Shown here: positions 12,365 to 57,321 of the stretch, in pieces
Layout: the number at the start of each line of letters is the position of its first letter
Position numbering within the stretch: position 1 is the first letter of the stretch
Origin: Escherichia coli
GTDB taxonomy: Bacteria > Pseudomonadota > Gammaproteobacteria > Enterobacterales > Enterobacteriaceae
Assembly: GCF_003334405.1 (NCBI RefSeq)
Contig: NZ_QOWM01000018.1
Length of the DNA: 64,000 nucleotides
Reading direction: 5' to 3' (one strand)
Notes under the pieces: model-generated
What the model was told of the DNA's origin: nothing
Database searches by the model: none
Seen by the model: only the letters and a program-made list of their open reading frames with translations
Program-made: the position numbers and the translations under genes

Positions 12365-13068
12365 TGAAACCTGAAACAGAAATAGATGAAACCGGCAGCT
12401 TCGGTGAACCCGAAGAGAAACCCGCCCCCTTCTGGAAACGTTCCGTCTGGGGGATATCTGTAGCAACATGGGGGCTATGTGCAGTCGTGTTGCTCGCAGC
12501 CATATGGTATCTGTTCCTGAGAGCGCCATCGGAAACAGGCATGCCTCCGTTTAATGATGCGGATGCTGGCGTACAGACCTGGCAAACCACACAAGAATCA
12601 TCACCTTCCGTTCAGTCCACTGAGACCATGACTGTCCGGACAGGAGAAGATATGAGCCAGCTTGCCCGGGATGTAAAAACAGAGCTGGATAACCGCGATG
12701 AAAAAATTCAGGCAACACTGAATATGCTTCACGACAGCATTAACAAGCTGGGCGAAGCTATAAAAAAGGATGAAGAATACGCACAGGAAACACGCCGTCA
12801 GCTGGATGATATCCGGAGCCGCCTGAACGGAATAATGACACAGAAAAGCGTCACTGAATCCTCTTCCACACCGCATCCAGCAAAGAAAAAAACGTCGTCT
12901 GTACTTAACGGAATGAAAATCATGTCGATGGAAACTGGTATGGCCTGGATTCGCTGGCAGGGTAGTACCTGGGCTGTCAGAGAAGGTCAGACGCTGGGCA
13001 ATGTGGTGATCCAGCGGATTGATCCGACTACCCGGACCATCATCACCAGTGCAGGGACGTTACGCTGA
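12364..13068 (+). CDS. traP: Transfer protein TraP
   Basis: TM segment; ATGA overlaps on both sides; gene order. Confidence 0.45.
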   Translation: MKPETEIDETGSFGEPEEKPAPFWKRSVWGISVATWGLCAVVLLAAIWYLFLRAPSETGMPPFNDADAGVQTWQTTQESSPSVQSTETMTVRTGEDMSQLARDVKTELDNRDEKIQATLNMLHDSINKLGEAIKKDEEYAQETRRQLDDIRSRLNGIMTQKSVTESSSTPHPAKKKTSSVLNGMKIMSMETGMAWIRWQGSTWAVREGQTLGNVVIQRIDPTTRTIITSAGTLR

Positions 13069-13595
13069 TGAACATGGATGCCCTGACCGCCATTGAGAAC
13101 TTTGCCAGCAGTATTTTCAGTGCCGGAATGGATTTCCTGTTTACCTGGGGAGAATTCATCGGGGTGATCAGCATGATTACCCTGTTTGCCCGCGCCCGTT
13201 CAGCCGGTCCGGTAAAAATGTCTCCCGGAAAATTTATTGCGGGGATGTTAACCAGCTGCATGCTCGTATCACTCCCGGCAATGATTAACGCCGGAGGCGT
13301 ACAAATGGGATTCAGGGCTGACTCATTTGGCCCGATTGCATATGTACAACCTCAGACGTTTGGCGCTGCTGCTGGCGCAGCAAATGCAGTTCTGTCGCTG
13401 GCCAAGCTGGCCGGTGTTGGATTTGTAATGAACGGGATATCCATCTGGCGCAAGGCCGGACTCGATGGACATACCGCACTGAGTGCCAGTGAATCCGTCA
13501 GTAAGGGAAACGTCAAATTTATTGCCGGCGTCCTGCTGGTCTTTATCGATCGTGTCCTCAATGCCCTGCTGGCAAGCATTGGAATCGTCTTCTGA
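13068..13595 (+). CDS. traQ: Transfer protein TraQ (integral membrane)
   Basis: Multiple hydrophobic segments; gene order. Confidence 0.45.
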   Translation: MNMDALTAIENFASSIFSAGMDFLFTWGEFIGVISMITLFARARSAGPVKMSPGKFIAGMLTSCMLVSLPAMINAGGVQMGFRADSFGPIAYVQPQTFGAAAGAANAVLSLAKLAGVGFVMNGISIWRKAGLDGHTALSASESVSKGNVKFIAGVLLVFIDRVLNALLASIGIVF

Positions 13596-13645
13596 TTTTT
13601 TTCACCTTCATATAAACCACTGATATATCCATTTAAGGAGAAACT

Positions 13646-14050
13646 ATGTCACGTATTCGTGTCGTAGCGGCCCGTCTGTACGCCGCATTTATCCACGCAC
13701 AACTGTTTGTAATGTCATGCCGGAGCAAACTGACTAAGTTCCTGCTGCTCATTCCCATGATGTTGCTGCCCAAAGCCGTTCTTGCCGATGGAGATCTTGC
13801 CGATATGGTTCGCAATGTCGAACAAGGTGCCAAAACAGCACAGTCATCATCACTGACTATTGCGCAGTTCATCGGCGTAATTCTGTTTCTCGGGGGCCTG
13901 ATTGGCCTGAAAAAAGTTGGGAAACAAGGGGGGATGGGACTGGCTAGTTGCATTGTATCTATCGTCATTGGGGCGGTACTTGTCGCCGGACCTGAAATGA
14001 TGAGTCGCAGCCAGAAACAGTTGGGGATTTCCTCAATTTCCATTGGCTAA
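13646..14050 (+). CDS. traR: Transfer protein TraR (small membrane protein; true start may be internal)
   Basis: Hydrophobic segments; gene order. Confidence 0.4.
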   Translation: MSRIRVVAARLYAAFIHAQLFVMSCRSKLTKFLLLIPMMLLPKAVLADGDLADMVRNVEQGAKTAQSSSLTIAQFIGVILFLGGLIGLKKVGKQGGMGLASCIVSIVIGAVLVAGPEMMSRSQKQLGISSISIG

Positions 14051-14113
14051 TCTTGTCCAGGGCACTGGCATTTATCCGGTGCCCTTCCTATTCGGCAATA
14101 CAAGGAGGCACAT

Positions 14114-14302
14114 ATGTCTGCCTGGAGCCCGGAGCACATAACGTTACGACGAACAGAAAACGGCAATGTGATTGCCCACGACAGTCGGGACAATCAGGAA
14201 TTCATTTTTGCAGAATGCTGTTCCGATGAAATCGCAAACATCATTCTGGAAGCCGTGAAACGTTACACCAGTACGGAGCCTGCTCATGCAACACAGCATT
14301 AA
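14114..14302 (+). CDS. Small transfer-region protein (TraS position)
   Basis: 62-aa ORF in operon context overlapping the next start; gene order only. Confidence 0.3.
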   Translation: MSAWSPEHITLRRTENGNVIAHDSRDNQEFIFAECCSDEIANIILEAVKRYTSTEPAHATQH

Positions 14303-15086
14303 AGACTTGTGGTTGTATCCCTTTCCAGAAATTGATGTGGTTCATACACAGGAGCCACTGTTACCGGAACCGGAATTAACAACGCCCGGTCGATGTATCT
14401 GCTGCCGGCAAAACGTCAGGCACCGTTTCAGACTGGATGACTCATGGCCACTCAGACAGCTTACCGACACAATCAGTGACACACGAGTTCGTCTTAATAA
14501 GGCCACAGAACATCTGGATAAGTTAAAAAAGCGTGGTGAACCAGTCGCAACCGGCGAAAAGGAAAAGTACAACACGGCAGTAAAAGCCGCTGAACGGGCG
14601 CTTGAGCAGGCCCGTCTGTCTGCCAGACGTCTTTCACTCCGCCATGTACAGAAAGCTGAAATCACCAGTACAGAGCCGTTGTCAGAGAAAGAGCAGGAAC
14701 TGTTTCATGAAGACGGCCCGCCTTACAGCTTATGTGCTTTCTGCCACGCCTGGCATTCACTGAATGGTTATGCCGCAGCACAGGGCGTTATGGTATGGCT
14801 ACCCGACCTTCATCCATCCACGGTCGTGGCCCTTAACCGTCGTTCATTACAGGAAGTTTTCAGTAATGATAAGTTCCGGGTCCGGCGGGGACGAGAAGCG
14901 CTCTCTGCACTGATGCAAAACAGACTGGCGGTTGAGGATAAATTCCGCAGTTTCCGCCCGGCCGATTTCGCTGACGTTTTTCGTCGCTATCCACCTTCCG
15001 GTCGTTCGCCCCTGCGTGAAAAAATGAACGGGATTGCCCTGATTCTGACACCAGATTCATTCATCAAAAAAGAATTCGTTGATTGA
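14286..15086 (+). CDS. traT: Transfer protein TraT
   Basis: 266 aa; stop overlaps traU region; gene order. Confidence 0.45.
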   Translation: MQHSIKDLWLYPFPEIDVVHTQEPLLPEPELTTPGRCICCRQNVRHRFRLDDSWPLRQLTDTISDTRVRLNKATEHLDKLKKRGEPVATGEKEKYNTAVKAAERALEQARLSARRLSLRHVQKAEITSTEPLSEKEQELFHEDGPPYSLCAFCHAWHSLNGYAAAQGVMVWLPDLHPSTVVALNRRSLQEVFSNDKFRVRRGREALSALMQNRLAVEDKFRSFRPADFADVFRRYPPSGRSPLREKMNGIALILTPDSFIKKEFVD

Positions 15087-15175
15087 TTTTTCTTCATGCC
15101 ACTCCAGCGCGGGGTGGCATTAAAAAAATCAAACTGCACAAACCTCCCTCCTGTAAGTCCGGAGTTCCCTCACCT

Positions 15176-18100
15176 ATGAACATAAACCGTTTAATCTTCA
15201 CTATCGAAGACTGTCTGAACACGCTATCCCGTTTCTCTGTCGCAAGCAGTTTTGTTGAGTATTGCGATTTGCGTACTGTAATTGGTCTGGACAGACAGGA
15301 TCGTGAACGTCGCCCATGGCTGAATTCGCCCTATATTGCAGCCACAAAGCGTGGAGAATATCTCTCTGTCTTTGAAGTCAGCGGTGCTTTCAGGGAAATG
15401 GATGAAGCATCCGACCAGGCTGGCCCAGGTTCACTGGAATCGCTGATCACCAGCATGAGTGACAGCCTGAATACGGCATATAAAAACAGCGGTCATAAAA
15501 TCAGCTGCGTTTTCGAGCGTGACCCTGAAATGGGGAAAGAGGAAATCGAAGACATGGTCGCCCCACAAAAACGCTCACTGGCTAATACAGGTATCCAGTT
15601 ACAGGATGTGGTCGATGAGAAAGTCACAACACTGTCCCCATGGCTGGTCCGGGAGCGTTGCTGGCTGGCGATCTGGAGTGGACCCGACCTTATCAGCAAC
15701 AGCGATCGCACCGCCCATGATGAGCTTGTCAGAAGACTGGCTGAACGGGTACCGAAAGCACGCTTTGCCCAGTCCCCCTGGCAGTGGACCTTATCTGCAC
15801 TGAAAATCCGCCACGAAGCTTTTCTTGATAATGTGGAACAGGCACTGAGACATTCATCTGATGGCCTGATTCTCCGGCTTCTGGATATACACGAAGTCGG
15901 GCGTGAAATACGTCGTCAGACAGAACGGTACAGCACACCGCGTAACTGGCAACCCCACCTGCCTGAAGATGCCCAGCCAGCAGGATATCGCTGGACTGAC
16001 GATGAATCCGTACTACATGCTCCTTCATTGCATTTGCAGTTATTCAACACGCAGGTGACCACACAGGGCAACCTGGTTCAGGCGGGCGGACTCTGGCACG
16101 GAATGGTATCGATTACTTTACCTCCGCAAAATCTGCAGACGTTTAACGAACTGGTCCGTGCCGTCCCCCGCGCAGTCCCCTGGCGCATCAGAATGGATCT
16201 GATGCCCGGCGGGATGAAGGCTCTTAATCTGAAGAAAACGCTTCTGACTTACAGCAGCTTCATTTCTGCCGTTCGTCCAATGTATGAATCCGTTATGACC
16301 CTGGCGGCAACGGATGAAAAAGAACCTGTCTGCATAATGACCATCATGGCCTCCACGTGGGGAAAAACACGTGAAATATGCGCACGAAACCAGGCCATTC
16401 TGAAATCGGCCATTGAAGGCTGGGGCGTATGTGGCACCACAACAACATTTGGCGATCCCCGACGCGCCTGGGTGAATACCATTCTCGCGGCATCCGGAGG
16501 CTCCGGCCCGGTTCCCCTGTATCCCCCGTTGTCACATGCCATCTCGCTTTTCCCGCTTAACAGGGCAGGCTCTGTCTGGCGAGGCAAAGGGAATCTGATG
16601 TTACATACAGAAGACGGTTCCGCATTTGAGGTTGGTCTGGCGTCATCCCAACAAAATAAACATACAGAACTGGCACCAGGCGATCCGGGGCTGGGTAAAT
16701 CAGTTCTGATTAATACGTTGTCGGAAATACAGATATCATCTGCTCAGAAAAACCTGCCCTTCATTGCCTATATCGATAAAGGATACAGTGCTCAGGGACT
16801 GGTTCAGCTTATTCGCGACAGTCTTCCTCCGGAAAGAAAAGACGAAGCTGTCGGTATTATTCTGAGCAATGATCCGGAATACACCCGTAACCTTTTTGAC
16901 GTGATGTACGGCGCTAAAAAGCCTATTACGCCGGAAAAGAATTTCATGTCATCGGTGCTGTGTGCTCTCTGTGTCGATACCGGTACCGGTCAACCCTGTA
17001 ACCCCGGAGACACCCGACAAATTATCAACCAGCTTATCGAGCTGGCTTTTAAAGAGTACGGTGAAAATAATCCGCGACTTTATCGCGCCTCAACGGAAGA
17101 ACTGGTGGATTCAGCACTGCAGGACTCGGGACTGTATGAAAAACATGATGCAGCCTGGTGGGCCAGATCAACCTGGTTTGAAGTCCGGGATATGCTCCAC
17201 AATGCCGGGTATATCATGGCAGCTCAGCGGGCACATTATCAGGCAATGCCCCAGCTTCCCGAAGTGTCCTCGATGCTGGGCCATACCAGTCTCAGGGATG
17301 TTTTCGGTACTGTTCAGCGTGATGGTTCAAACGAGCTTCTGCTGGACTACATCCGCCGCGCCCTGGAGCAGGGACATAACGACTACCCCATGATATCCGG
17401 GTATACCCGGTTTATGATCAACCCGGAAACCCGGGTCATCGCTGTCGATCTGAATAATGTTGCCGGTGACAAAACGCCTGCAGGCAGGCTTAAAACCGGC
17501 ATCATGTACCTGCTTGCAGGTCAGATCGCCGGTGGTGACTTCACCCTGCCACAATACAGGGATGAAGTGTTAAAGCAGCTTCCACGGGAATACCATGAAA
17601 TCGCTCTTAAACGTATTAACCAACTTGATCAGGAGGTTAAGACAAAAGTTTATGATGAACTGCATAACGCCCGGGGCATTGACTTCATCTGGGAAAATCT
17701 GGATACCCAGGAGCGTGAGCAACGCAAGTTTGCTATCCGCACGGTTCTGAGTACGCAGTATCTGAGGGACTACCCGGAAAGCGTTCTTAAGTCAGCAAAT
17801 ACTCTCTGGTTACTGCGCTACAAACCCGAAGATATCCCCGTACTGAGGGATAACTTCAACGTTCCTGAATTTATGCTGAAACGCTTCCTGAAAATGCCGG
17901 AAGGCCCGGCACCAGATGGTAGTGGTGTTCCTGTTCTGGGAGTATTCAGGGTAAAAAGTGGCACACTTGCGAGAATACTCAAATTTACCGTCGGTCCACT
18001 GGAGCTATGGGCGCTGAACTCATCGCCAAAAGACAGTGCCCTGCGTAAAACACTGACAAATAAGTTAGGTTCAGTTCGGGCACGTAAGATTCTGGCCGAA

Positions 18101-18220
18101 AACTTCCCCAGAGGTTCTGCAACGTCATTAATTGAGCACCGGGCGGGCCAACATAACAGTGACAATGTTATTGAAGATCTGGCCTCGGAGCTCATCCGAA
18201 AACAGGGATACAATCTCTGA
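15176..18220 (+). CDS. traU: T4BSS ATPase TraU (DotO/IcmB-like)
   Basis: ATG at 15176 gives 1014 codons (track ORF starts at an upstream TTG); Walker-A-like GDPGLGKS; size and position. Confidence 0.8.
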   Translation: MNINRLIFTIEDCLNTLSRFSVASSFVEYCDLRTVIGLDRQDRERRPWLNSPYIAATKRGEYLSVFEVSGAFREMDEASDQAGPGSLESLITSMSDSLNTAYKNSGHKISCVFERDPEMGKEEIEDMVAPQKRSLANTGIQLQDVVDEKVTTLSPWLVRERCWLAIWSGPDLISNSDRTAHDELVRRLAERVPKARFAQSPWQWTLSALKIRHEAFLDNVEQALRHSSDGLILRLLDIHEVGREIRRQTERYSTPRNWQPHLPEDAQPAGYRWTDDESVLHAPSLHLQLFNTQVTTQGNLVQAGGLWHGMVSITLPPQNLQTFNELVRAVPRAVPWRIRMDLMPGGMKALNLKKTLLTYSSFISAVRPMYESVMTLAATDEKEPVCIMTIMASTWGKTREICARNQAILKSAIEGWGVCGTTTTFGDPRRAWVNTILAASGGSGPVPLYPPLSHAISLFPLNRAGSVWRGKGNLMLHTEDGSAFEVGLASSQQNKHTELAPGDPGLGKSVLINTLSEIQISSAQKNLPFIAYIDKGYSAQGLVQLIRDSLPPERKDEAVGIILSNDPEYTRNLFDVMYGAKKPITPEKNFMSSVLCALCVDTGTGQPCNPGDTRQIINQLIELAFKEYGENNPRLYRASTEELVDSALQDSGLYEKHDAAWWARSTWFEVRDMLHNAGYIMAAQRAHYQAMPQLPEVSSMLGHTSLRDVFGTVQRDGSNELLLDYIRRALEQGHNDYPMISGYTRFMINPETRVIAVDLNNVAGDKTPAGRLKTGIMYLLAGQIAGGDFTLPQYRDEVLKQLPREYHEIALKRINQLDQEVKTKVYDELHNARGIDFIWENLDTQEREQRKFAIRTVLSTQYLRDYPESVLKSANTLWLLRYKPEDIPVLRDNFNVPEFMLKRFLKMPEGPAPDGSGVPVLGVFRVKSGTLARILKFTVGPLELWALNSSPKDSALRKTLTNKLGSVRARKILAENFPRGSATSLIEHRAGQHNSDNVIEDLASELIRKQGYNL

Positions 18221-18834
18221 TGTGTACAATTCATATCACCCCACGCTGCCGGAGACCTGCCAGAGGGCAGGTATTTCTTAAAAAACTTGAGGTAAAAGGT
18301 GACAGTTTCTCATTCACTCTGCCGTCACGTGTCTTCAGGTTACATCCGGCCCCCAATCCCAGAGTGATATACGCCTCAGATGCCAGAACACAGGGAAAGG
18401 TTACAGGCATGCGGCTGTTGTTGCCGTCCAGCACAGATGAGCTGATAACAACGGCAATATGGCAGGTTTCTGTCCCGGATGAAGCACCATTCGACGTTCA
18501 GCATGTCATCCAGTGGATACTCCCTTCACCGCTGGCTTCGCTGATGTCCGATGATACCTGGTTATGGCCATCCGTTCCCGGAACGCCGGCACTGAGTGCC
18601 GGTGACTGGCCTGTCATGGATACTGACCCGTCCACCTTACGGCGCGTCAGACGTCGTTCTTTCAGCATCATCGATAACCGGAACAGGAAAGGTTATATCA
18701 CCAGGCGATATCAGTGTTTCCCACTGGCCCCACTACCTGAAGACAGAAAATACGACAGCCTTCCTGACCTTGTGCTCCACCCCGAGCAGGAGACAATAAA
18801 ATGCAAAGAAAAACATTACTCGCAGCCCTTATAG
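18220..18834 (+). CDS. traV: Transfer protein TraV
   Basis: ATGA overlap with traU stop; gene order. Confidence 0.45.
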   Translation: MCTIHITPRCRRPARGQVFLKKLEVKGDSFSFTLPSRVFRLHPAPNPRVIYASDARTQGKVTGMRLLLPSSTDELITTAIWQVSVPDEAPFDVQHVIQWILPSPLASLMSDDTWLWPSVPGTPALSAGDWPVMDTDPSTLRRVRRRSFSIIDNRNRKGYITRRYQCFPLAPLPEDRKYDSLPDLVLHPEQETIKCKEKHYSQPL

Positions 18835-20003
18835 CCATCCTGAGTGGAACGGCATGCCAGGCTCATGCTTATTCAGTCACCGTCGTCGCCAGCCGCCCCG
18901 TTGAACAGCAGGTCGTCCCCAGAATGGAGGCCATCAAAGGTGTGCTGAGTGACATACTGAGTACCCAGACAGCCACGGGTACCGCTATCAATCAGAACTC
19001 TGAAAAGCTGGCAAGTGTCATTGCCCAGAACGGACAGGCGACACGTCAGCAGATGATTTTCAGTAATGAAACTCAGCGCCTCGAGGAGGCACGGAAAAGC
19101 TTCACCGTGCCAGACTCCATCTGCAGTGAATCCGCATCAGGGATTGCAACAGAAAGCAAAAGTGCCTCAGCATCCGCAGCCTCAAAACTCAGTAAAGGTG
19201 GCGGTGTGAGCAACCGTAACATCCGCGACCGTCTGGCCAGCGCAGCAAACTCTCCCGTGCGGGAAGCTTATGATGGCGCGGCCATACACGCCAGTTACTG
19301 TACAGAAGCAGAATATGCACGTTTTGGAGGAACCGCCGTTTGTCCTTCTGTGGGCGAAATACCAGGTGGAGACAGTCAGGTACGCTCGATTTATCACGGC
19401 GCAGGTACAGCGGACACACCTGCGGCACTGACATGGGATCAGAAGCAAATAGATGCAGCGACGGCTTACATGAAAAACACTTCCCGCCCCTCTGCCGGTC
19501 GTGCTCTGGGTAAAGGAGAAGTGAATACCCAGAGTGGGCGAACCTACGTCGGACTCCAGAACGAATACAACGGCATCATTGATTCTGCGTCGAATCCCCA
19601 ACTGACGCTGATTGCTGACAGCACGCCTAATGAAACCACACGTAAAGCACTGGCTGAAACACTGCAGTCAGACTCAGCGGCCGCTTACTTCGACCAGGTG
19701 GCTTCACCAGAAGCAAAAGCACGGGGATATATGAGTACCCGTGAGTTTGAAGCTTTTGAGGCTGGCCGGCGCTACGCCAACACAGCATACCTGGTGGATT
19801 TACAGGAAATGCAGGGAGATAACCTGCTCCGTGAACTGGTAAGAATCACTGCGCAAATGAACTGGCAGCTGAACGACCTGAAAGAACAGATCCGCCAGGG
19901 TAATGTCATCTCTGGACAGCAACTGGCTCTGACCGCCCGCCAGTATTATGAAAAACAACTCGGTAGCCTTGAGAAAACAATCAATCAGGCAAACGCACGT
20001 TGA
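18801..20003 (+). CDS. traW: Transfer lipoprotein TraW
   Basis: Signal peptide with lipobox-like LSGTAC; 400 aa; gene order. Confidence 0.5.
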   Translation: MQRKTLLAALIAILSGTACQAHAYSVTVVASRPVEQQVVPRMEAIKGVLSDILSTQTATGTAINQNSEKLASVIAQNGQATRQQMIFSNETQRLEEARKSFTVPDSICSESASGIATESKSASASAASKLSKGGGVSNRNIRDRLASAANSPVREAYDGAAIHASYCTEAEYARFGGTAVCPSVGEIPGGDSQVRSIYHGAGTADTPAALTWDQKQIDAATAYMKNTSRPSAGRALGKGEVNTQSGRTYVGLQNEYNGIIDSASNPQLTLIADSTPNETTRKALAETLQSDSAAAYFDQVASPEAKARGYMSTREFEAFEAGRRYANTAYLVDLQEMQGDNLLRELVRITAQMNWQLNDLKEQIRQGNVISGQQLALTARQYYEKQLGSLEKTINQANAR

Positions 20004-20643: not shown

Positions 20644-22881
20644 ATGTCGCCATCCCCCTTAATTAAATCCTGTGTGGCCTTTGCCCATACGCAATTCTAT
20701 TCCGGAGTTACTGTGAAAATTTTACTTCGCGCACTCTGTGCAGGCCTTGCTATATCCTCACTGCCGGCAATGGCTTCAGTGACCTATCAGGATATTGTGT
20801 CTGCCGCAACCAATCCTGACGATCTGTCCCGTCAGGCGCTGGTCACGATATTCGGTGATGTGGTCACCAATCCACTGTCAACCAGCGCCCCCACCCTAAT
20901 CGGAAGCATGTTCGGGGCGTTCAACAGTATCATCGCCGTACTTGCCGTTGTCTGGTTTATGTTCATTGGTATCCGTCATGTTGTGCGTTCGGGGCATCAG
21001 GGACAGGTATTCAGCACCGGACGCGATATCGTCGGCACACTGAGTGTCGTTGCAGGTTTTCTGATGATCGTTCCAACCGGAAATGGCTGGAGTCTCGCTC
21101 AGCTCATTATGTTATGGGGCGCATCGATAATGGGGGTTGGGTCCGCCAATGTAATGGTGCAACTTGCCGCTGATAATATCGCAAATGGTTATTCAATGAC
21201 TGTACAGCCAGTTCAGGCATCCACACGAACAGCAGCGCGTGGCATTTTTGAAATGGAACTGTGTAAGTATGCGGTTAACGCAGGACTAAATGATTTTAAT
21301 CAGACGGCCAAATCCTCGACTTCACTGATGACAGAATCAGCTAAAACCGCCAGTGGTAATTACACTGTCACAGTATCCAATGGCAGCGGTATCTGTGGTA
21401 CAGCCAGCCTGTCAGTAGAAGGAAACGGAACAACAGATCAATCGACGATTGGAAAATTCTTTAATCCCTTCAGTAAAAACGAATACAGCGGTGTTATCTC
21501 AGCACAACGTGCAGCCATGGATAATATGATTAGCGACATGGACAACGCTGCCAGTGAGTTTGTGACAACATTTCTGGAAAAAAGAAATTCTGGCAACGGA
21601 ACATTGCCGGATATCGAGACACGGATTCAGAGAGCAGCCGACGAGTATGAGCGTGCTGTACAAAAATCGCTACCTATTGATAACGGAGAACAATCCAGGA
21701 AAGAAGCTCTCAAGTCTTATCTCACAACCTATGGATGGGTAACGCTTGGCGCGTGGTATCAGACCTTTGCCACTGCTAACCAGCGTCTGGCAGAGCTGGC
21801 TGACAGAGCTCCAGCTGTAACTTCAATGTCATCACTTGGGGAAGTTGGCGATACTGATTTATTTAGTGCTGTTATGGGGGCATACAAGACTCAATTACAG
21901 AACTCCACATATACTCCAACGATAGGAACGATAACAACTCAAGATGAAAGTAATGCAGCTAATAGCACAGACCCACAAAGTGTGGTCATGAAAAGTATAG
22001 CGCCAACCATATTAAAATGGACAAACCAAGCTGCTACTGAATGGTCAGGAACAGGAACAACCAGCAACCAAGTTAACCCATTAATTAAGATGAAAAACAT
22101 CGGCGATTATACATTGGGTACAACAGAAATTCTCTGGACAGGATATACAACTGTCAGAGTTCTCGCGACAATGGGTGATAATTCTATTTTCGGAAAGGCT
22201 GTTAATTTGTTCTCTGGATTACCTAAAGGATTTGTTGCTCTGCTGGATGCTGCAGCTCCCCCAATATATTTCTTGTTGTTCCTGTTGTTTTGTGCGGGTT
22301 TTTCCTTATCAATTTACCTACCATTTATACCATTCATTTTCTGGATGACAGGCATTGGGAACTGGATAGTAAGCGTATTAATAGGATGCACCGCCGGGCC
22401 TCTGTGGGCAGCAACACATCTAGGAACATCAGAGGACAGAGGAAGTCGAGCAGCTTACGGATATATATACTTAATTGACAGCATGATAAGACCACCTCTC
22501 ATGGTATTCGGTTTCTTTTTTGCCTCTGTCGCCATCATTGCCGTCGGCACAATATTAAACTCACTGTTTGGCGCAGCACTAGTTAACGTACAGGTAAAAT
22601 CATTAACAGGGATATTCAGCCTTGCCGGGTTCCTGCTAATTTACGCCCGTATGTGTACAACGTCTGTAGCTGCAATATTTGCTTTACAAGCATATCTTCC
22701 TGACCATGTTATCAATTTCTTGGGTGGTAGAGATGGTGTAAATACTCTTGGCAACCTCACCTCATCAGTAAAAGATATTTTTGCAGGTTCTAATAGAAAT
22801 ATTAGGCACAGCCCAGGAGTTAGAGAGGACAGACTAAAAAATGTCACAAAGGATGATAATAAAGATGGAATAAAAGGATAA
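20644..22881 (+). CDS. traY: Polytopic inner-membrane transfer protein TraY (DotA-like); 3' third is AT-rich
   Basis: 745 aa, many hydrophobic segments; position before excA; abrupt drop in GC from about 21800 onward. Confidence 0.7.
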   Translation: MSPSPLIKSCVAFAHTQFYSGVTVKILLRALCAGLAISSLPAMASVTYQDIVSAATNPDDLSRQALVTIFGDVVTNPLSTSAPTLIGSMFGAFNSIIAVLAVVWFMFIGIRHVVRSGHQGQVFSTGRDIVGTLSVVAGFLMIVPTGNGWSLAQLIMLWGASIMGVGSANVMVQLAADNIANGYSMTVQPVQASTRTAARGIFEMELCKYAVNAGLNDFNQTAKSSTSLMTESAKTASGNYTVTVSNGSGICGTASLSVEGNGTTDQSTIGKFFNPFSKNEYSGVISAQRAAMDNMISDMDNAASEFVTTFLEKRNSGNGTLPDIETRIQRAADEYERAVQKSLPIDNGEQSRKEALKSYLTTYGWVTLGAWYQTFATANQRLAELADRAPAVTSMSSLGEVGDTDLFSAVMGAYKTQLQNSTYTPTIGTITTQDESNAANSTDPQSVVMKSIAPTILKWTNQAATEWSGTGTTSNQVNPLIKMKNIGDYTLGTTEILWTGYTTVRVLATMGDNSIFGKAVNLFSGLPKGFVALLDAAAPPIYFLLFLLFCAGFSLSIYLPFIPFIFWMTGIGNWIVSVLIGCTAGPLWAATHLGTSEDRGSRAAYGYIYLIDSMIRPPLMVFGFFFASVAIIAVGTILNSLFGAALVNVQVKSLTGIFSLAGFLLIYARMCTTSVAAIFALQAYLPDHVINFLGGRDGVNTLGNLTSSVKDIFAGSNRNIRHSPGVREDRLKNVTKDDNKDGIKG

Positions 22882-51004: not shown

Positions 51005-52278
51005 TGTTTGCACTGGCTGATATCAACAGTTTCTACGCCTCATGTGAAAAAGTTTTCCGCCCGGACCTTCGCAACGAACCGGTCATCGTACTCAGCAATA
51101 ACGATGGCTGTGTGATCGCGCGCAGCCCGGAGGCAAAAGCCCTTGGCATCAGAATGGGGCAGCCCTGGTTTCAGGTGAGACAAATGCGCCTGGAGAAGAA
51201 AATACATGTATTTTCCAGCAATTATGCGCTGTACCACAGCATGAGCCAACGGGTTATGGCTGTTCTGGAGTCGCTTTCTCCCGCAGTTGAGCCCTACTCA
51301 ATTGATGAAATGTTCATTGATTTGCGGGGGATAAATCATTGCATCTCTCCGGAGTTTTTTGGTCATCAGCTCAGGGAACAGGTAAAGAGCTGGACAGGAC
51401 TCACCATGGGGGTGGGCATTGCGCCTACAAAAACGCTGGCTAAAAGTGCACAGTGGGCAACAAAGCAATGGCCACAGTTTTCCGGAGTGGTCGCGCTGAC
51501 GGCAGAAAACCGTAATCGGATCTTGAAGCTACTGGGGCTGCAGCCAGTTGGTGAGGTCTGGGGAGTAGGACGCAGACTGACGGAAAAGCTGAATGCGCTG
51601 GGTATTAACACAGCACTGCAGCTGGCGCAGGCTAACACGGCATTCATCCGGAAAAACTTCAGCGTCATTCTTGAGCGTACGGTACGCGAACTCAACGGCG
51701 AGTCCTGCATATCCCTGGAAGAAGCACCACCGGCAAAACAGCAGATTGTCTGTAGTCGCAGTTTTGGTGAACGAATCACAGACAAAGATGCCATGCACCA
51801 GGCTGTTGTTCAGTATGCAGAGCGGGCCGCAGAGAAACTACGTGGGGAGCGTCAGTATTGCCGGCAGGTGACGACATTTGTACGGACATCACCCTTTGCA
51901 GTAAAAGAACCCTGTTACAGCAATGCCGCTGTGGAAAAGCTTCCATTGCCCACACAGGACAGCCGGGACATTATTGCCGCCGCATGCAGAGCCTTAAACC
52001 ATGTCTGGCGTGAAGGGTACCGCTATATGAAGGCAGGTGTCATGCTGGCTGATTTCACACCATCGGGTATAGCGCAGCCGGGATTATTTGATGAAATCCA
52101 GCCCCGTAAAAACAGTGAAAAGTTAATGAAAACACTCGATGAACTGAACCAGTCGGGAAAAGGGAAAGTGTGGTTTGCGGGGCGAGGAACCGCCCCTGAA
52201 TGGCAAATGAAACGGGAAATGTTGAGTCAGTGTTATACAACTAAATGGCGAGATATTCCCCTGGCCAGGCTGGGTTAG
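51004..52278 (+). CDS. impB: ImpB (UmuC-like Y-family DNA polymerase subunit)
   Basis: N-terminal MFALADINSFYASCE motif typical of UmuC/DinB; 424 aa. Confidence 0.85.
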   Translation: MFALADINSFYASCEKVFRPDLRNEPVIVLSNNDGCVIARSPEAKALGIRMGQPWFQVRQMRLEKKIHVFSSNYALYHSMSQRVMAVLESLSPAVEPYSIDEMFIDLRGINHCISPEFFGHQLREQVKSWTGLTMGVGIAPTKTLAKSAQWATKQWPQFSGVVALTAENRNRILKLLGLQPVGEVWGVGRRLTEKLNALGINTALQLAQANTAFIRKNFSVILERTVRELNGESCISLEEAPPAKQQIVCSRSFGERITDKDAMHQAVVQYAERAAEKLRGERQYCRQVTTFVRTSPFAVKEPCYSNAAVEKLPLPTQDSRDIIAAACRALNHVWREGYRYMKAGVMLADFTPSGIAQPGLFDEIQPRKNSEKLMKTLDELNQSGKGKVWFAGRGTAPEWQMKREMLSQCYTTKWRDIPLARLG

Positions 52279-52279
52279 T

Positions 52280-52696
52280 TCAGTCATCTCCGAACATATT
52301 TTCAGCGTTTCTTCTGGTCTGGTCTTCACCGTCATTTCTCGACAGACTCTGCTCTGTAAGAGGAGTACTGCAATCCACAGACGTATGGAGACCAGATTGT
52401 TTTTCCAGTAATTCAAGCAATTTCTTTTCAACCGAAAAAGCACCTGGTATTACGCTGGAAATCACCTTATTAATATCATCCAGAGTCGTATTTTCTGTCA
52501 GTAACTCCGATATCAGCAAAGGAAGACGTTTATCTATAGCTGCAAACGCCGCACCAGTAACTAACATCGCGCGCATGAAACGTCCCCGCTCCTTCAGTTT
52601 TTCATTTGCAATGAGCTCATCTGCTATCTTATCTCCTGTCCGTTCATCCGGGAAAAGTTCAAATGAGCAGCGTCTGGATTTATTTTCATCACTCAT
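52280..52696 (-). CDS. ParR/StbB-like partition adaptor
   Basis: Small gene immediately downstream of the ParM-like gene. Confidence 0.5.
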   Translation of the reverse strand: MSDENKSRRCSFELFPDERTGDKIADELIANEKLKERGRFMRAMLVTGAAFAAIDKRLPLLISELLTENTTLDDINKVISSVIPGAFSVEKKLLELLEKQSGLHTSVDCSTPLTEQSLSRNDGEDQTRRNAENMFGDD

Positions 52697-53738
52697 TAGT
52701 CACACCACCTTTCATTTTTATCATTCCCATGACTAAATCAAACTGCGGGGATGAGCTCAGATAAAAGCGCTCATCAGGAACCTTAGTCAGGTTCTTCACA
52801 GCCTCGGCCACAATTTCAGCCCCACCACCAACACACATTACATGTGTATAGTCGGTGAAACGGCTGATGACATCATTAACTCGTTTAATAAGCAACTTCT
52901 GCCGTTCATTGATAACATTAATGATAGACTCACGCTGTTCAGCATTATAAATGCGACGGGAAAGGTAGTCAGGTTCATTACGGTGCACAATGATATTGTC
53001 AGCCTGGAATGAGCTCACTCTTGTATTAGCATGTACAGCCATCTGTTCCTTAACCCCGGATGTAATCAGGGACACGCCGATATTCGGATCACACCAGGTT
53101 TTTGTAATCCCTGTCATTTTGCTACGAACATGCGACACATCAAGAGTTGTACCACCGAGATCTACGATCAAAAGGGATTCATCATCCTCAAGCCCCGCAA
53201 GAACACTGAAACCAGCGGGAATACTTTCAGGAAGAACGGAAACACTGCGAATAACAAATGCATCACTCCCCTGCACCCGTACTTCACGCATCACATTTTT
53301 TTTCTTTCTTTCAATGTTTTGCTTATTTTTCTGATTGTTGGCGTCAAGGTATTCAGAGATCGGCAATGTGACGATGACATCAACAGGCTGCGCTTTCAGG
53401 CCGGTCTGCTGTAGCGCATGCTGAATGGCCACAACATTCACATCACTGTACTGATAGCGTGTTTCAGTCGTTACGACAGCATCAGCACTTAATGGATCAA
53501 ATGAAAACTTCTCGCCGTCGATCTCGTAATTAGCCGGAGCAGCATCATCCAGTAAACTAAAAGACCATTCCGGTTTAAAGCTGTTAGGGCTGATTAACGT
53601 TTTCACGTCACCATCCTCCAACCAGGCAAGTTTAATGTTGGTAGAACCATCATCAATAAAGATTTTCATAACCAGTCTCCGTTGCTCATAAACAAATAGA
53701 AAAAACAAACATACTTCATACATGCAATGTATATTCAA
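52689..53738 (-). CDS. parM: ParM/StbA actin-like partition ATPase
   Basis: N-terminal phosphate-1 motif MKIFIDDGSTNIKLAW and further actin-fold motifs. Confidence 0.8.
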   Translation of the reverse strand: MNIHCMYEVCLFFLFVYEQRRLVMKIFIDDGSTNIKLAWLEDGDVKTLISPNSFKPEWSFSLLDDAAPANYEIDGEKFSFDPLSADAVVTTETRYQYSDVNVVAIQHALQQTGLKAQPVDVIVTLPISEYLDANNQKNKQNIERKKKNVMREVRVQGSDAFVIRSVSVLPESIPAGFSVLAGLEDDESLLIVDLGGTTLDVSHVRSKMTGITKTWCDPNIGVSLITSGVKEQMAVHANTRVSSFQADNIIVHRNEPDYLSRRIYNAEQRESIINVINERQKLLIKRVNDVISRFTDYTHVMCVGGGAEIVAEAVKNLTKVPDERFYLSSSPQFDLVMGMIKMKGGVTNE

Positions 53739-53900
53739 TTATAATGAAAAAACGGTCTTTCTGAAAGGACAAATGCAACATAAAAACACGATAAATTGCA
53801 TGTACATTGTACACACAACTTTAAGACCAGAGGAAATCATAGATACAAAAACATTATGAAGGTTATATGTGATACATAAATGCAATATAAAAACATCGTG
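53720..53900. promoter_or_regulatory. parC-like centromere/promoter region with iterons
   Basis: AAATGCAA(C/T)ATAAAAACA at 53771-53788 and 53878-53895, related copy at 53722-53739; AT-rich; upstream of parM. Confidence 0.45.
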
Positions 53901-54082
53901 AACATCATGGTTCAGGTTAAGGGAAAAGGAATGAAATGGTGAAACTGAGAGGAAAGGAAAGCGGTGACGAATCATGTCACCATAAACAGAAAGATGTCTA
54001 ATGGGGACTCTTTAGGTACGTGAAGAATCCCCATAACGCATTTAAAAGACACACATCAGATACCCTTAAGGTATCCGATAGT

Positions 54083-54391
54083 TTATTGACCTATTGCACC
54101 ATCACGTTCAAGCTTCTCTCTTATAGCCTCAATAATATATGAGCTAAAATCCAGAGATGTTTTACTGGTCGCTTTAAGTTCCGCATGAGCTTCAAAATAC
54201 GACAGCGGTATGGCCTTAAGATTCTTAGCCTTCGTCCTGGCAGCCACGGGACGACCTGAAACTTCCTCTGCACCTTCATTTGGCTGAGACGGGGCTGTTG
54301 CTGTTACGGCAGAAGAAGAAGTTTGTAATCTGGCAGAATCCACCAGGTTTTTCAGTTTTTCAGCCTGTGCACTAAATTTCGCTTTGCTCAT
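54083..54391 (-). CDS. ParG-like centromere-binding protein
   Basis: 102-aa gene immediately downstream of a ParA-type ATPase gene. Confidence 0.45.
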   Translation of the reverse strand: MSKAKFSAQAEKLKNLVDSARLQTSSSAVTATAPSQPNEGAEEVSGRPVAARTKAKNLKAIPLSYFEAHAELKATSKTSLDFSSYIIEAIREKLERDGAIGQ

Positions 54392-54477
54392 GAGATAACC
54401 CAGGATGTTTGTTAGATACTTAAAAGATATCCATTAAAAGCCCAAAGGATACTATATGGATACCCAATAGACACACC

Positions 54478-55122
54478 TTACTGTTTGTTATTTTCAATCA
54501 GATGATTGATTTCTTCGATCAGGGCAATAACTTCCTTACCTCCTGCCGAATAGCGCCCATGAACAGACTCAGTGATTCCCATCCCAGTCTCAATGACATC
54601 CTCAAATTCTGCACGAGCAGAAATGCGGCTCTTCATCAGCTTCAGATGTTTGAACGATGGCAGGATTGCATCAAGCTTAGGGAATTTCTTCTTGTTAGGA
54701 TTAACTTTACAGAGATACAGGTGAGCAGTTATATCGGTCCCCATGATAGAGCTGATTTCGTCCAGTACTCCATCAAAATGCATCAAACCAATACGTTCAG
54801 TCAGGGAGTCTTTTGAAGGAACAATAACGCAGTCTGCAAAGGCAATCGCAGTACGGGTAAGATCTGAGTCAAATCCCCCACAGTCAATAAGTAACGTCTT
54901 ATCGCTGTTCTTGTAGGGAGTCATAATTTCGATTAACTCATCCACTGTTTTGGGTACTTTCACGGAAATTTCTTTTCCTTCAGGTCTCAGCCCCAGAATG
55001 ATAGAAAGCCCGGTATGAGTATCCAGATCAACTGTATCAGACTTCATTTCACCAACAATGTTTACGGATGAAGTTGTCTTACCCACACCACCTTTGGGAT
55101 GCGTATTAGCAATAACAGGCAT
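54478..55122 (-). CDS. ParA/ParF-type partition ATPase
   Basis: Deviant Walker A KGGVGKTT near N-terminus (start at internal MPVIANT; track ORF over-extended to 55188). Confidence 0.8.
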   Translation of the reverse strand: MPVIANTHPKGGVGKTTSSVNIVGEMKSDTVDLDTHTGLSIILGLRPEGKEISVKVPKTVDELIEIMTPYKNSDKTLLIDCGGFDSDLTRTAIAFADCVIVPSKDSLTERIGLMHFDGVLDEISSIMGTDITAHLYLCKVNPNKKKFPKLDAILPSFKHLKLMKSRISARAEFEDVIETGMGITESVHGRYSAGGKEVIALIEEINHLIENNKQ

Positions 55123-55169
55123 AGTGTATCTCCAGAATCCACATGTAATACCCATAAAGACCCCATAAG

Positions 55170-55290
55170 ACACCTTTCGGATATCCAAGAGGTACTCAAT
55201 AGATGTTTTTTTACTCTATACCGGTCCTGCATGTCAACAGAATATGAAATACCGATAATATATCCATGAGATATCCGAAAGGGATTTAAA
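55170..55290. promoter_or_regulatory. Candidate ParG operator/centromere repeats upstream of the ParA-type gene
   Basis: TTCGGATATCC (55177-55187) and inverted copy GATATCCGAAA (55271-55281); related GGATA(T/C)C motifs at 54067-54081 and 54424-54470. Confidence 0.4.
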
Positions 55291-55301
55291 AAAGTCAGAG
55301 C

Positions 55302-56081
55302 TTATGGAATTCTTTTGAGCATAGACACCGCATCGGACTCAGGCATCGAAAACTGCACCCGGTGCCGTGCAGCCACATCCAGTGCAAACACCTTCGTGTA
55401 GACCTCCGTTGAGCTGATGGACTTATGCCCCATCAGGCTCTGCAGGACCTTCAGCGGTATACCGGCATACAGCATGTGCATCGCATAGGAATGGCGAAAC
55501 GTATGTGGCGTGACCGGAACAGAGAATGTCACACCATCAGCGGCAGCGGCGGCAACCGCTTCCCCAATCCAGGTCCTGACCGTTCTGTCCGTCACTTCCC
55601 AGATCCGCGCTTTCTCTGTCCTGCCTGTTCGTTTATTACGCCGTTCCATGGGGATTTTCAGTGTGGCCACCATCGTCTGCAGCTGGCTGACGTACCAGGC
55701 GTCGGAGAGCGGAACCAGCCGGTGAGTCTGCTGACCGGCGGGCATCCTTCCTGCCGTCCTGGCGGCTTTTTCGGTCCGCTGCTTCAGAGTGGCCAGCTGC
55801 ACAAACGGATACGGAGGCGTGAGCGAAAAATCCCCCCGCGTCAGCGCCAGTGCTTCATTAATGCGTGCACCGGTGTTCCACAGTGTGGCCAGCAGCATCT
55901 TGCGGCGCAGATCCGGGACGTAATGGAGCAGGGCGCTCACTTCAGGGGCCAGCAGGTATTTTGGCAGTTCATCATGAACCATCGACATCTGGCGGAGTGC
56001 CAGCGCTGCCGGATAATCGATGGCAACAGGAAGCTGAGCGGCATCCCGGGCATGGTGTATCGGTGCCGGCAGGTGCTGCAT
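55302..56081 (-). CDS. Tyrosine site-specific recombinase (XerD/ResD-like)
   Basis: C-terminal catalytic region HTFRHSYAMHML...GH...TEVYT; probable start at internal Met near 56081. Confidence 0.8.
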   Translation of the reverse strand: MQHLPAPIHHARDAAQLPVAIDYPAALALRQMSMVHDELPKYLLAPEVSALLHYVPDLRRKMLLATLWNTGARINEALALTRGDFSLTPPYPFVQLATLKQRTEKAARTAGRMPAGQQTHRLVPLSDAWYVSQLQTMVATLKIPMERRNKRTGRTEKARIWEVTDRTVRTWIGEAVAAAAADGVTFSVPVTPHTFRHSYAMHMLYAGIPLKVLQSLMGHKSISSTEVYTKVFALDVAARHRVQFSMPESDAVSMLKRIP

Positions 56082-56082
56082 A

Positions 56083-56496
56083 TCAGTGTTCACTCCACGG
56101 GGAAACGTCGGGCAGGTTTTCCACAACACGGTACTTTCCCGGATAACGGAGCTGGTTACCGCCACGCGTCCAGACGGTGACAACAAAACCCCCTCCCTGG
56201 TTGTTTTCGGGGAGCAGGCGATCGCACTGCTCACTCAGCATGTGGATCACGAACGGCGCATCGCTGCCGTCTTCAAATACCAGTTCCAGCGCATCGCGGC
56301 CGTGCAGCGTTCCCTTACTGATGATGACGTACTCAGCTCCCCGCATCTCCCTGAGTAAATGTTTTGCCGCATCCGGGACAAGCAGCCTGGCTGCGCCGGC
56401 ATTCCAGCTGAGGTAGACATATCCGGCCTGCGCCTGTACAGACTGCCAGTAATCCGTTCTGGCGACAGCCTGACCTTCATTCTCAATAAAAAACAT
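56083..56496 (-). CDS. Hypothetical protein upstream of and coupled to the recombinase
   Basis: ATG with AGGAG SD near 56496; stop abuts recombinase start. Confidence 0.35.
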   Translation of the reverse strand: MFFIENEGQAVARTDYWQSVQAQAGYVYLSWNAGAARLLVPDAAKHLLREMRGAEYVIISKGTLHGRDALELVFEDGSDAPFVIHMLSEQCDRLLPENNQGGGFVVTVWTRGGNQLRYPGKYRVVENLPDVSPWSEH

Positions 56497-56932
56497 GGGT
56501 GACTCCTTTTTTCTTTTCCGGGCAGGGACGGTCATGCGATAACGTCATCCATCATCACTGCCCTTACCGTCACGCCGTCTGATAACATCATGCCGTTATC
56601 ATCATCACCATGATAACAAGCATCCATATAACCACGCCGTTAAATTACCGGAGAACCGTTTCCGTCAGATCCGACTTTCCGGAATATCACAACTTTCCGG
56701 AAGTGTACCACGCTGAGGAAATAATCATATCGCTGTTTTCCGCCCCTGCGCGGCGCATCACAGGTCAGGGAAACAACACAACATATAGTGTCATAAGCAG
56801 CTGAATGTGGCACTACATGTTGTATTTACAGGAGGTAGCGTTGTGCGGAGATAGAGGAAGATCCGTGACCGCCGGAAACCGGATCTGCGCGGAAGAAAAG
56901 ACGCAAATGATATGATAATAAAAAACACACAT

Positions 56933-56992
56933 AAAATCATATCAGATATGATTTTCATCATTGATGATGAAACCATATCTGATATTATCAGA
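56933..56992. promoter_or_regulatory. Operator-like perfect palindromes upstream of the 57064 gene pair
   Basis: AAAATCATATC-a-GATATGATTTT at 56933-56955 and TCTGATA-t-TATCAGA at 56978-56992. Confidence 0.35.
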
Positions 56993-57063
56993 AATCAGGA
57001 GCACACAAATCATGCAGGATATTATTTTTACCTGTCAGAACATTATCAGATGGAGCGTGCAGG

Positions 57064-57321
57064 ATGGATGAAGAAAGGGGGTTTTCACTCAGTTATGAAC
57101 AACTGACCCGGTTTGCGGAAAAACGCATCCGGGAATGCAATCTGGACAGCCAGGGCGCGATTTATCTCTGCGAGTCAGCCAAAGCCGGAGCCGTGCTGAT
57201 CTTCTGGCATGAACTGGCCATAAATGGCTATGCCTCAATGAATGCCATAAAGAGACAAGAGATCATTGACGCCGACTTTCAGCGCCTCAGAAACCTCATC
57301 TGGCCGGAGGATGACAGGTAA
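57064..57321 (+). CDS. Hypothetical protein (85 aa)
   Basis: ORF coupled by ATGA overlap to the next gene. Confidence 0.3.
   Translation: MDEERGFSLSYEQLTRFAEKRIRECNLDSQGAIYLCESAKAGAVLIFWHELAINGYASMNAIKRQEIIDADFQRLRNLIWPEDDR

Follow-up and report, generated by a model that had tools for sequence, protein, structure and literature searches.

Why does a plasmid carry two partition systems side by side, and do they act as redundant machines or record a past fusion of two replicons? The question is raised by a 64,000-nucleotide stretch of Escherichia coli DNA (assembly GCF_003334405.1, contig NZ_QOWM01000018.1; hereafter the window), in which a reading of the letters alone had noticed an actin-type and a Walker-type partition pair next to a tyrosine recombinase and had offered redundancy or a cointegrate history as explanations. 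We find that the window is IncI1 backbone and that its par locus is the classical stability region of an R64/ColIb-P9-type resistance plasmid. As that reading had proposed, two distinct partition systems lie next to each other in the locus; both cassettes appear intact, and each has a repeat family to itself. We consider it probable that the two cassettes, arranged in tandem on the minus strand and independent of each other, form together with the multimer resolvase ResD the stability module of IncI1 plasmids. Its parts are:

52280-52696, minus strand: parR-like gene ('parB' in R64 nomenclature), 138 amino acids, type II adaptor
52689-53669, minus strand: parM ('parA' in R64 nomenclature), 326 amino acids, actin-like segregation ATPase
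53670-54082: parM-yegA spacer, 413 bp
54083-54391, minus strand: yegA (R64 name), 102 amino acids, putative centromere-binding protein (ParB role)
54392-54477, minus strand: parA-parB gap, 86 bp
54478-55122, minus strand: yefA (R64 name), 214 amino acids, small Walker-type ParA ATPase
55123-55301, minus strand: parA upstream region, 179 bp
55302-56081, minus strand: resD, tyrosine recombinase, adjoining the par cassettes but part of neither

All five genes thus lie on the minus strand. The sequence-only reading had placed the double system at 53720-55290. That interval does hold the iterons, the ParA gene and the small second gene, but parM and parR (52280-53669) fall outside it, and the recombinase, which is indeed present, lies just beyond its end.

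The 3.8 kb at 52280-56100 are 99.7-99.8% identical over their full length to more than 800 plasmids, including ColIb-P9 (NC_002122); the matching plasmids are conjugative and enterobacterial. In PLSDB, at least 1062 records contain 80% or more of the locus and about 1100 contain YegA at 95% identity or more; with counts so close, the two cassettes travel together. Gene order in R64 is the same as in the window (yedA, integrase, ParA-family gene, a 309-nt hypothetical gene, ParM, ParR, impB). The GC content of the par block of about 3 kb is 43-45% (34-37% in its intergenic parts), as against 51-56% in impCAB and 57-59% in resD-yedA, so that the par cassettes stand out from both flanks as a compositionally distinct module. 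The name resD is taken from the annotation of the R64-derived record LC567069. That record has the two types swapped, with 'type II' given to the Walker ATPase and 'type I' to the actin-type pair.

The first cassette is of type II. ParM matches the Pfam families StbA_N (8e-82) and ParM C-terminal (4e-72), is 53% identical to ParM of R1/R100 and can be aligned over its whole length to the crystallised R1 ParM in PDB (E 1e-104). In the R1 alignment its phosphate-binding and adenosine motifs (DDGSTNIKL, PESIPAG, DLGGTTLD and GGGA) are all kept; ParM is an actin-fold ATPase with conserved nucleotide motifs, as is characteristic of type II systems. The gene for its adaptor follows directly 3' of parM, with an 8-nt overlap with the parM stop. 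ParR matches Pfam Plasmid_stab_B (PF10784; the ParR/StbB family) with an E-value of 1.1e-27, is 39% identical over 80 amino acids to ParR/StbB of R100 and 30% identical to the pB171-type ParR, and matches PDB entry 2JD3 (E 2e-6). Compared with L011, a diverged copy of the locus on an IncF plasmid, parM has a ratio of nonsynonymous to synonymous substitution rates (dN/dS) of 0.04, indicating purifying selection. A relative of this ParMR pair, named 'parA-parB' on the IncM plasmid pCTX-M3, has been tested as a partition system (PMC8125031); among the systems reported as partition modules with experimental support, this IncM homologue is the closest.

Upstream of parM lies a parC-like region, whose elements are:

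53695-53895, minus strand: parC-like region, comprising three TGTTTTTRTRTYK iterons, a degenerate T-rich copy, a promoter-like site and inverted ATGCAAT elements
53776-53788, 53841-53853 and 53883-53895, minus strand: the TGTTTTTRTRTYK iterons, conserved 13-nt direct repeats upstream of the promoter-like site
about 53695-53712, minus strand: degenerate T-rich iteron copy
53765-53738, minus strand: promoter-like TTCAGA-16-TATAAT, putative parM promoter
53719-53732 and 53791-53804: inverted ATGCAAT elements
53962-53982, minus strand: terminator-like hairpin GGTGAC-N7-GTCACC with a CT-rich tail, between the two cassettes

The iterons that had been noticed are real, and they lie upstream of a ParM gene. 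Two 18-mers, AAATGCAACATAAAAACA (53771-53788) and AAATGCAATATAAAAACA (53878-53895), at a distance of 107 bp, are the same but for one position, and a third, shorter copy, ATACAAAAACA, stands between them at 53843-53853. When up to one mismatch is allowed, the coding-strand unit TGTTTTTRTRTYK has three sites in the window, all within 120 bp; as the pattern was derived from these same three copies, the scan speaks for uniqueness and not for significance. The repeats, spaced 42 and 65 bp apart and T/G-rich on the coding strand, are candidate ParR sites; they differ from those of parC in R1 in number, spacing and orientation. T-rich repeats of about 11 bp are also found upstream of parM in the IncM relative (PMC8125031).

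The same spacer in L011 shows which of these elements last. The two spacers (53670-54082 in the window, 3611-4034 in L011) are 82% identical with a 12-bp indel, and L011 keeps the three iteron cores, the TATAAT hexamer and an inverted ATGCAAT element, as well as the hairpin block at 53962-53982 with one pair broken; of the 18-mer it keeps only the AAYATAAAAACA part, the AAATGC part being lost. By comparison the ParM proteins are 99.7% identical (dS 0.055) and the parA upstream regions about 93% identical. Given that the spacer is far more diverged than parM, recombination has probably occurred inside the locus, and the pattern suggests either a breakpoint of recombination or a centromere region that evolves fast. 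Co-evolution of ParR with the diverged parC of L011 was considered and ruled out, because the four ParR changes are C-terminal and not at the DNA-binding end.

The second cassette begins with a ParA of type Ib. YefA has 214 amino acids with a deviant Walker A motif (KGGVGKT, of the KGGxxK[ST] form) at residues 10-16, and it is without an N-terminal DNA-binding domain, as expected of the type Ib ParA proteins of about 200 amino acids. Its Walker A' and B motifs align with those of the pESBL and pB171-type ParA proteins, the DLD segment and LLIDCGG being kept. The catalytic motifs had been named in the sequence-only reading as the place where an inactive cassette would betray itself; those of ParM and of the Walker ATPase are all intact in alignment. 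Library matches are weak (PHROG ParA-like, 9e-23; NCBIfam ParA_partition, 1.6e-14, below cutoff; weak hits to MipZ, AAA_31 and CbiA in Pfam), and we therefore regard YefA as a divergent member of the ParA/MinD type, 24% identical to ParA of pESBL and 19% to the pB171-type ParA. It is under purifying selection (dN/dS 0.09 against L011). A mechanical open reading frame call starts the protein at the TTG at 55188 (236 amino acids); the ATG at 55122, preceded by GGAG, gives the 214-residue form with Walker A at 10-16, as in the annotated homologues. The opposite error, a start annotated too far downstream and removing Walker A, has been reported for pESBL (PMC7602700).

What kind of protein is the partner of YefA? 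The sequence-only reading had called it ParG-like, and as a statement of kinship this is unproven. Neither YegA itself (102 amino acids) nor a profile of 20 or 59 sequences finds a match in Pfam, NCBIfam or PDB, and none of 59 members of its family matches ParG or any other Pfam entry. By hhalign its probability of matching ParG is 0.1, an approximate ParG sequence being used; hhalign likewise finds no similarity to ParB of pB171 or of pESBL. As all of these comparisons (phmmer and profile searches of PDB, Pfam, NCBIfam, hhalign) are negative, homology to the known centromere-binding proteins finds no support. 'ParG-like' then describes a likely mode of action and not family membership.

YegA nevertheless belongs to a family of its own. 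A search of 1.84 billion representatives gathers 79 clusters at 50% identity, mostly of 75-100 amino acids, spread over plasmids and phage-like elements. In every locus with an identifiable upstream neighbour the gene follows a small ParA gene, and yegA itself has a dN/dS of 0.28 against L011. In the family alignment the N-terminal segment is short and conserved; a linker of variable, low-complexity sequence separates it from a conserved domain of about 50 amino acids. This C-terminal domain matches phrog_19714 (function unknown) and contains a basic stretch, an invariant proline and two amphipathic helices with, in most members, a G-x-T turn between them. In the AlphaFold model (mean predicted local distance difference test score 67) residues 4-19 form a helix and residues 25-46 are disordered; an extended segment then leads to two helices, 65-74 and 82-96. 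No ribbon is formed in the model of a tandem-fused construct, and structure searches with the YegA model return matches at noise level only, with no significant fold match. Ribbon-helix-helix proteins have a G-x-T turn before their second helix, and ParG and omega combine this fold with a flexible tail that contacts the ATPase. The modelled topology of YegA is compatible with such a protein. In NCBI records members of the family are named 'molecular chaperone GroEL' or 'hypothetical' without a supporting domain. One distant member lies with its ParA on a 43-kb contig (GCA_002876705.1; L016) on which a phage-type protein (Phage_VG64) and an N6/N4 methylase are also encoded. Given this contig and the phrog_19714 match, the family may also serve phage-plasmids.

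The candidate binding sites of YegA are repeats surrounding and separating the two genes:

55123-55301, minus strand: parA upstream region with the upstream array, its proximal part at about 55124-55190 and its distal part at 55247-55282
54392-54477, minus strand: gap array, about eight units of 11 bp sharing the core G(G/A)TATC
53985-54082, no strand assigned: downstream array, with minus-strand units at 54047, 54058 and 54069 (11-bp spacing) and plus-strand units from 53992
55237-55232, minus strand: TTGACA of the putative parA promoter, with TAAAAA 18 nt downstream, read by eye

The sequence-only reading had described GGATATCC-type inverted repeats on both sides of the pair. The motif is enriched, GGRTAYC occurring 41 times in the window against 20.8 expected, with 8 of the 41 in the approximately 360 bp of intergenic DNA around parAB; the repeats are, however, mainly three arrays of GGRTATCT units phased at 11 bp, mostly direct and some inverted, and the array in the gap had been missed. 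Most units are oriented in the same way as the genes, and the exact GGATATCC palindrome occurs once, at 55179-55186. Autocorrelation at lag 11 gives z values of 5.1 (upstream), 3.3 (gap) and 2.3 (downstream), with signal again at lag 22 (z 2.8 in the downstream array). When a weight matrix is trained on two arrays and applied to the held-out third, it finds 9, 6 and 5 non-overlapping sites in the upstream, gap and downstream arrays, against 1.97, 0.92 and 0.96 in shuffles, none of 1000 of which reaches the observed number. Only the upstream and gap arrays reach at least 7 matches per 100 bp in the window; the density of the downstream array (5 matches) is equalled at one other site, 22842, a chance A-rich stretch. 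The idea of a global regulator with further YegA arrays in the window was rejected for this reason, the cluster at 22842 being the sole other one. Twelve of the 41 GGRTAYC sites lie within 6.5 kb at 12452-18983, including the palindromic pairs 13435/13436 and 17701/17702; they form no 11-bp arrays.

The arrays are placed where regulation and partition could both be served. The proximal upstream array lies between the putative parA promoter and the start codon and the distal one upstream of it, and a perfect 13-nt inverted repeat (55173-55185 / 55270-55282) brackets the TTGACA hexamer. This upstream region is 93% conserved in L011 and L012, both copies on IncF plasmids. An A-tract in it, at 55203-55212, counts seven residues in the window, as against six in L011 and nine in L012; in inverted orientation this stretch agrees at 82% with the T-rich sequence 53696-53712, which stands just upstream of the parM ribosome-binding site. 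An inverted sub-array of the downstream array matches the upstream array over 30 nt (80%, inverted). The RNA 3' of yegA (53940-54085, minus strand) is predicted to form three or four hairpins of high stability (-45 kcal/mol, z -4.2), two of which end in U- or CU-rich tails; the terminator-like hairpin at 53962-53982 belongs to this region, and palindromic GGATACC/GGGTATC units double as a terminator-like stem; Rfam has no match in 52000-57200. In the gap, a promoter specific to yegA, such as omega has, is not supported, since no consensus promoter is found in 5 of the 8 parA-parB gaps scanned, namely that of the window and four of the seven others. The gap array may be the primary centromere, or it may control the ParA:ParB ratio.

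A link between YegA and the arrays comes from homologous cassettes, of which six were compared: those of a Klebsiella IncFII plasmid (L005), a Yersinia plasmid, two more Klebsiella plasmids, an Aeromonas plasmid and the 43-kb contig L016. All six have a small ParA gene, a gap of 53-95 bp and then a YegA homologue. Eleven bp is the top lag of the gap in five of them (L006-L009 and L016; z 3.7-5.8); the gap of L005 has lag 22 on top (z 6.1), followed by lag 11 (z 5.1). As a rule there is an upstream array as well, but the downstream array is missing in L009 and L016, which makes the gap array the most constant feature of the family. Its motif changes between lineages. GGRTRTC is common to the window and a 69%-identical Klebsiella homologue with nearly the same C-terminal domain, while the Yersinia plasmid has ATGTATTC, one Klebsiella plasmid AGGAWTCC, and another Klebsiella plasmid and the Aeromonas plasmid ATGTACA. 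The C-terminal domain of YegA is near-identical only where the array motif is common, and in the lineages in which the motif differs, so do the residues of the extended segment that precedes helix 1. Over seven cassettes the array motif thus co-varies with the C-terminal domain of YegA, as would be expected of a type Ib protein and its cognate array.

Together these features suggest how the module would work. ParR would bind the T-rich iterons of the parC-like region around the parM promoter, repressing the parMR operon and capping ParM filaments, which would push sister plasmids apart. YegA dimers would bind GGRTATCT units 11 bp, or about one helical turn, apart; the three arrays would nucleate partition complexes, and those flanking the parA promoter would also give autoregulation. 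The N-terminal segment of YegA would stimulate the nucleoid-bound Walker ATPase YefA, which would position the plasmids. ResD breaks multimers apart.

Several points weigh against this reading. The parC-like region has 3-4 recognisable iterons, where R1 has ten, and their orientation relative to parM is opposite. The dN/dS of parR against L011 is about 1, a ratio that is uninformative because it comes from only four substitutions, all C-terminal and none in the DNA-binding N-terminus. The putative parA promoter is not recovered by a consensus promoter scan. As RNA, the downstream array also forms strong hairpins that end in terminator-like tails, so that its symmetry may in part serve termination and not protein binding. 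Finally, the searchable literature yielded no experimental data on either R64-type cassette, stabilisation assays included, and searches on yefA and yegA returned nothing relevant.

Are both cassettes at work? Redundancy, as the sequence-only reading had suggested, is plausible. It is also possible, if on balance doubtful, that one cassette drives partition normally while the other is a back-up, is host-specific, or acts mainly as an incompatibility or regulatory determinant. SCP1 has two functional systems, only one of which counts under laboratory conditions (PMC13245405); by transposon sequencing, pESBL and pMS7163B rely on one par locus each (PMC7602700, PMC10286972); and relatives in the IncI complex live with one cassette, pESBL with type Ib only, L014 and the IncL/M plasmids with ParMR only. 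Yet both cassettes are intact together in about 1000 sequenced plasmids; parM, parA and parB are all under purifying selection; and the double loci of pB171, R27 and pWR100 are cited, at second hand, as functional in both parts (PMC13245405).

A bolder proposal goes beyond the two independent cassettes, and we hold it to be rather unlikely: YegA would found an undescribed class of centromere-binding proteins, with no Pfam family and no solved relative, whose defining site is the 11-bp-phased array between parA and parB, and in IncI1 the downstream array, which is only 100-200 bp away from parC, may link the type Ib system to the type II system by cross-regulation or as a composite centromere, as reported for pB171. 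We did not find the three-array anatomy, the conserved internal array or YegA as an unannotated family always partnering a small ParA reported in the literature.

Quite improbable, in our estimation, is that the GGRTATCT arrays are transcriptional elements only, that is operators and terminator hairpins, the true centromere being a single array or lying elsewhere. The upstream arrays do flank TTGACA, with the proximal one between hexamer and start codon, the downstream region forms hairpins with U-rich tails, and the downstream array is absent in L009 and L016. Against this, such arrays are operators and centromeres at once in pSM19035 (PMC3074150) and in pB171 (according to the summary in PMC7602700), all homologues have the gap array although 5 of 8 gaps are without a consensus promoter, and the motif forms no other array in the 64-kb window. 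A partition role for the arrays, next to a regulatory one, remains our preferred reading.

The history of the locus can be read from its neighbours and from its relatives. ResD matches the XerC/XerD family, is a recombinase of the ResD type, and is 94% identical over 249 amino acids to the integrase that follows ccdAB on a pB171-type IncFIB plasmid. The ParMR cassette occurs alone on IncL/M plasmids and on an IncI-gamma/K1 plasmid (L014), and the type Ib cassette alone on several other replicons. Since each cassette also occurs by itself, modular shuffling explains the pair better than replicon fusion. Par cassettes of different families sit beside the umuDC/impCAB-type polymerase V operon in several unrelated plasmids (at 50322-52278 in the window, and in L005, pESBL and L014), which suggests either a recurrent linkage or a slot preferred for insertion; different cassettes in the same slot in pESBL, L005 and L014 fit cassette exchange. 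We conclude that the locus arose by cassette mosaicism.

That the two systems and the tyrosine recombinase are a cointegrate scar, left by two replicons of which each contributed one par system, is by comparison very unlikely, and the history proposed in the sequence-only reading finds no support. One may point to the GC content of the par block (43-45%, against 51-59% in the flanking impCAB and resD-yedA), to the 94% identity of ResD with the integrase beside ccdAB on IncFIB plasmids, to the same double locus on the IncF plasmids L011 and L012, and to the parB-parM spacer, so much more diverged than parM in L011 as to imply recombination within the locus. But both cassettes share one GC content and form a single compositional block; no second replicon, insertion sequence element or duplicated junction adjoins the locus; ResD is a resolvase, which splits multimers; the different cassettes in the impCAB/umuDC slot fit cassette exchange; and the block is ordinary backbone in R64 and ColIb-P9.

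That YegA is no DNA-binding adaptor at all but a chaperone-like or accessory protein, the repeats being bound by something else, is scarcely credible: it has no homology to DNA-binding families and no confident fold, and NCBI names it a molecular chaperone, but a protein of 102 amino acids with a disordered linker and no domain match to justify the name cannot be GroEL, its gene follows a small ParA gene, within arrays whose motif tracks its C-terminal domain, in every locus with an identifiable upstream neighbour, and that domain combines a basic stretch and an extended segment with two helices, the family consensus having the G-x-T turn of ribbon-helix-helix proteins.

The locus matters because of where it is found. 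In E. coli and Salmonella, IncI1 plasmids are major carriers of resistance genes of the extended-spectrum beta-lactamase and AmpC kinds, and exactly this double par locus is found on about 1000 sequenced plasmids. The annotation is misleading, since R64-derived records exchange the type I and type II labels and the candidate centromere-binding protein goes under the name 'GroEL' or 'hypothetical', and the functional work usually cited for IncI partition, on pESBL, concerns a cassette different from that of R64-type plasmids. The three arrays and their motif are concrete targets for incompatibility-based curing, and the locus lends itself to a clean test of the way in which a type Ib and a type II system share one plasmid. 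Conceptually it is ordinary, one more member of the known class of double type I and type II par loci, and it brings no new principle.

How, then, does the locus compare with the systems already known? The type II cassette resembles ParMRC of R1/R100 in its proteins (ParM 53%, ParR 39% in the N-terminal domain), in the order parC-parM-parR and in its short A/T-rich iterons around the promoter upstream of parM. The parC of R1 has ten 11-bp iterons; those of IncI1 are fewer, longer (13-nt) and wider-spaced and are joined by inverted ATGCAAT elements, and they are T/G-rich on the coding strand and in the opposite orientation, whereas parC of R100 is A/C-rich there. For the type Ib cassette, ParF/ParG/parH of TP228 offers a parallel in design, a small Walker ATPase followed by a small protein with a flexible N-terminus and a compact C-terminal domain, with short boxes repeated close to the promoter. 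TP228 differs in its repeat motif and architecture, and YegA is without sequence or profile similarity to ParG, for which an approximate sequence was used.

The par locus of pESBL, an IncI plasmid of E. coli O104:H4, occupies the same slot beside impCAB and likewise has a small Walker ParA, a protein of about 100 amino acids without database homology, and arrays of short repeats, direct and inverted, on both sides of parAB. Plasmid stabilisation, foci and electrophoretic mobility shifts on the flanking octamer arrays have been demonstrated for it (PMC7602700), and no other IncI par system with functional data came up in the literature searched. In pESBL, however, the repeats are contiguous GATAACAA octamers and not 11-bp-phased GGRTATCT units, parA and parB overlap and so leave no room for an internal array, and no ParMR lies beside impB. 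Equating the two loci is rejected from the pESBL-EA11 sequence (NC_018659, 49600-51300), in which ParA is 24% identical and ParB unrelated (E 0.77). R64 parAB has been stated to be 100% conserved in pESBL (PMC10286972). This does not fit the sequences, as R64 (44010-48225) has the ParA/YegA and ParM/ParR genes of the window and pESBL-EA11 differs, and the pESBL experiments therefore do not cover R64-type plasmids.

Plasmid pB171 comes closest in overall layout, with type II and type Ib systems adjacent beside a ResD-type integrase, type Ib arrays upstream and downstream of parAB (summarised in PMC7602700), and a type Ib array and parC in one intergenic region. Its cassettes are divergent around a common central parC1, whereas those of IncI1 are in tandem, and its parA and parB overlap, whereas the IncI1 pair is split by the 86-bp array. 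Given the tandem order and the distance of the proteins (ParA 19%, ParM 37%, ParR 30%, no alignment for ParB), equating the locus with pB171 was likewise rejected; judged by their sequences, the par loci of pESBL and pB171 are analogous, not orthologous, to that of IncI1. Pairing of this kind is documented, 971 PLSDB plasmids having a type I system with a ribbon-helix-helix ParB together with a type II system in a recent survey, with pB171, R27 and the Shigella virulence plasmid cited as examples (PMC13245405). For the array between the two genes one has to turn to delta/omega of pSM19035, a Gram-positive plasmid with contiguous 7-bp heptads, no sequence similarity and a promoter of its own for omega, where the gap of IncI1 has none by consensus. 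There too arrays, direct or inverted, stand upstream of both the ATPase gene and the gene for the centromere-binding protein, and those at both promoters are operators and parS centromeres (PMC3074150), which makes pSM19035 the closest precedent for the internal array of the IncI1 locus.

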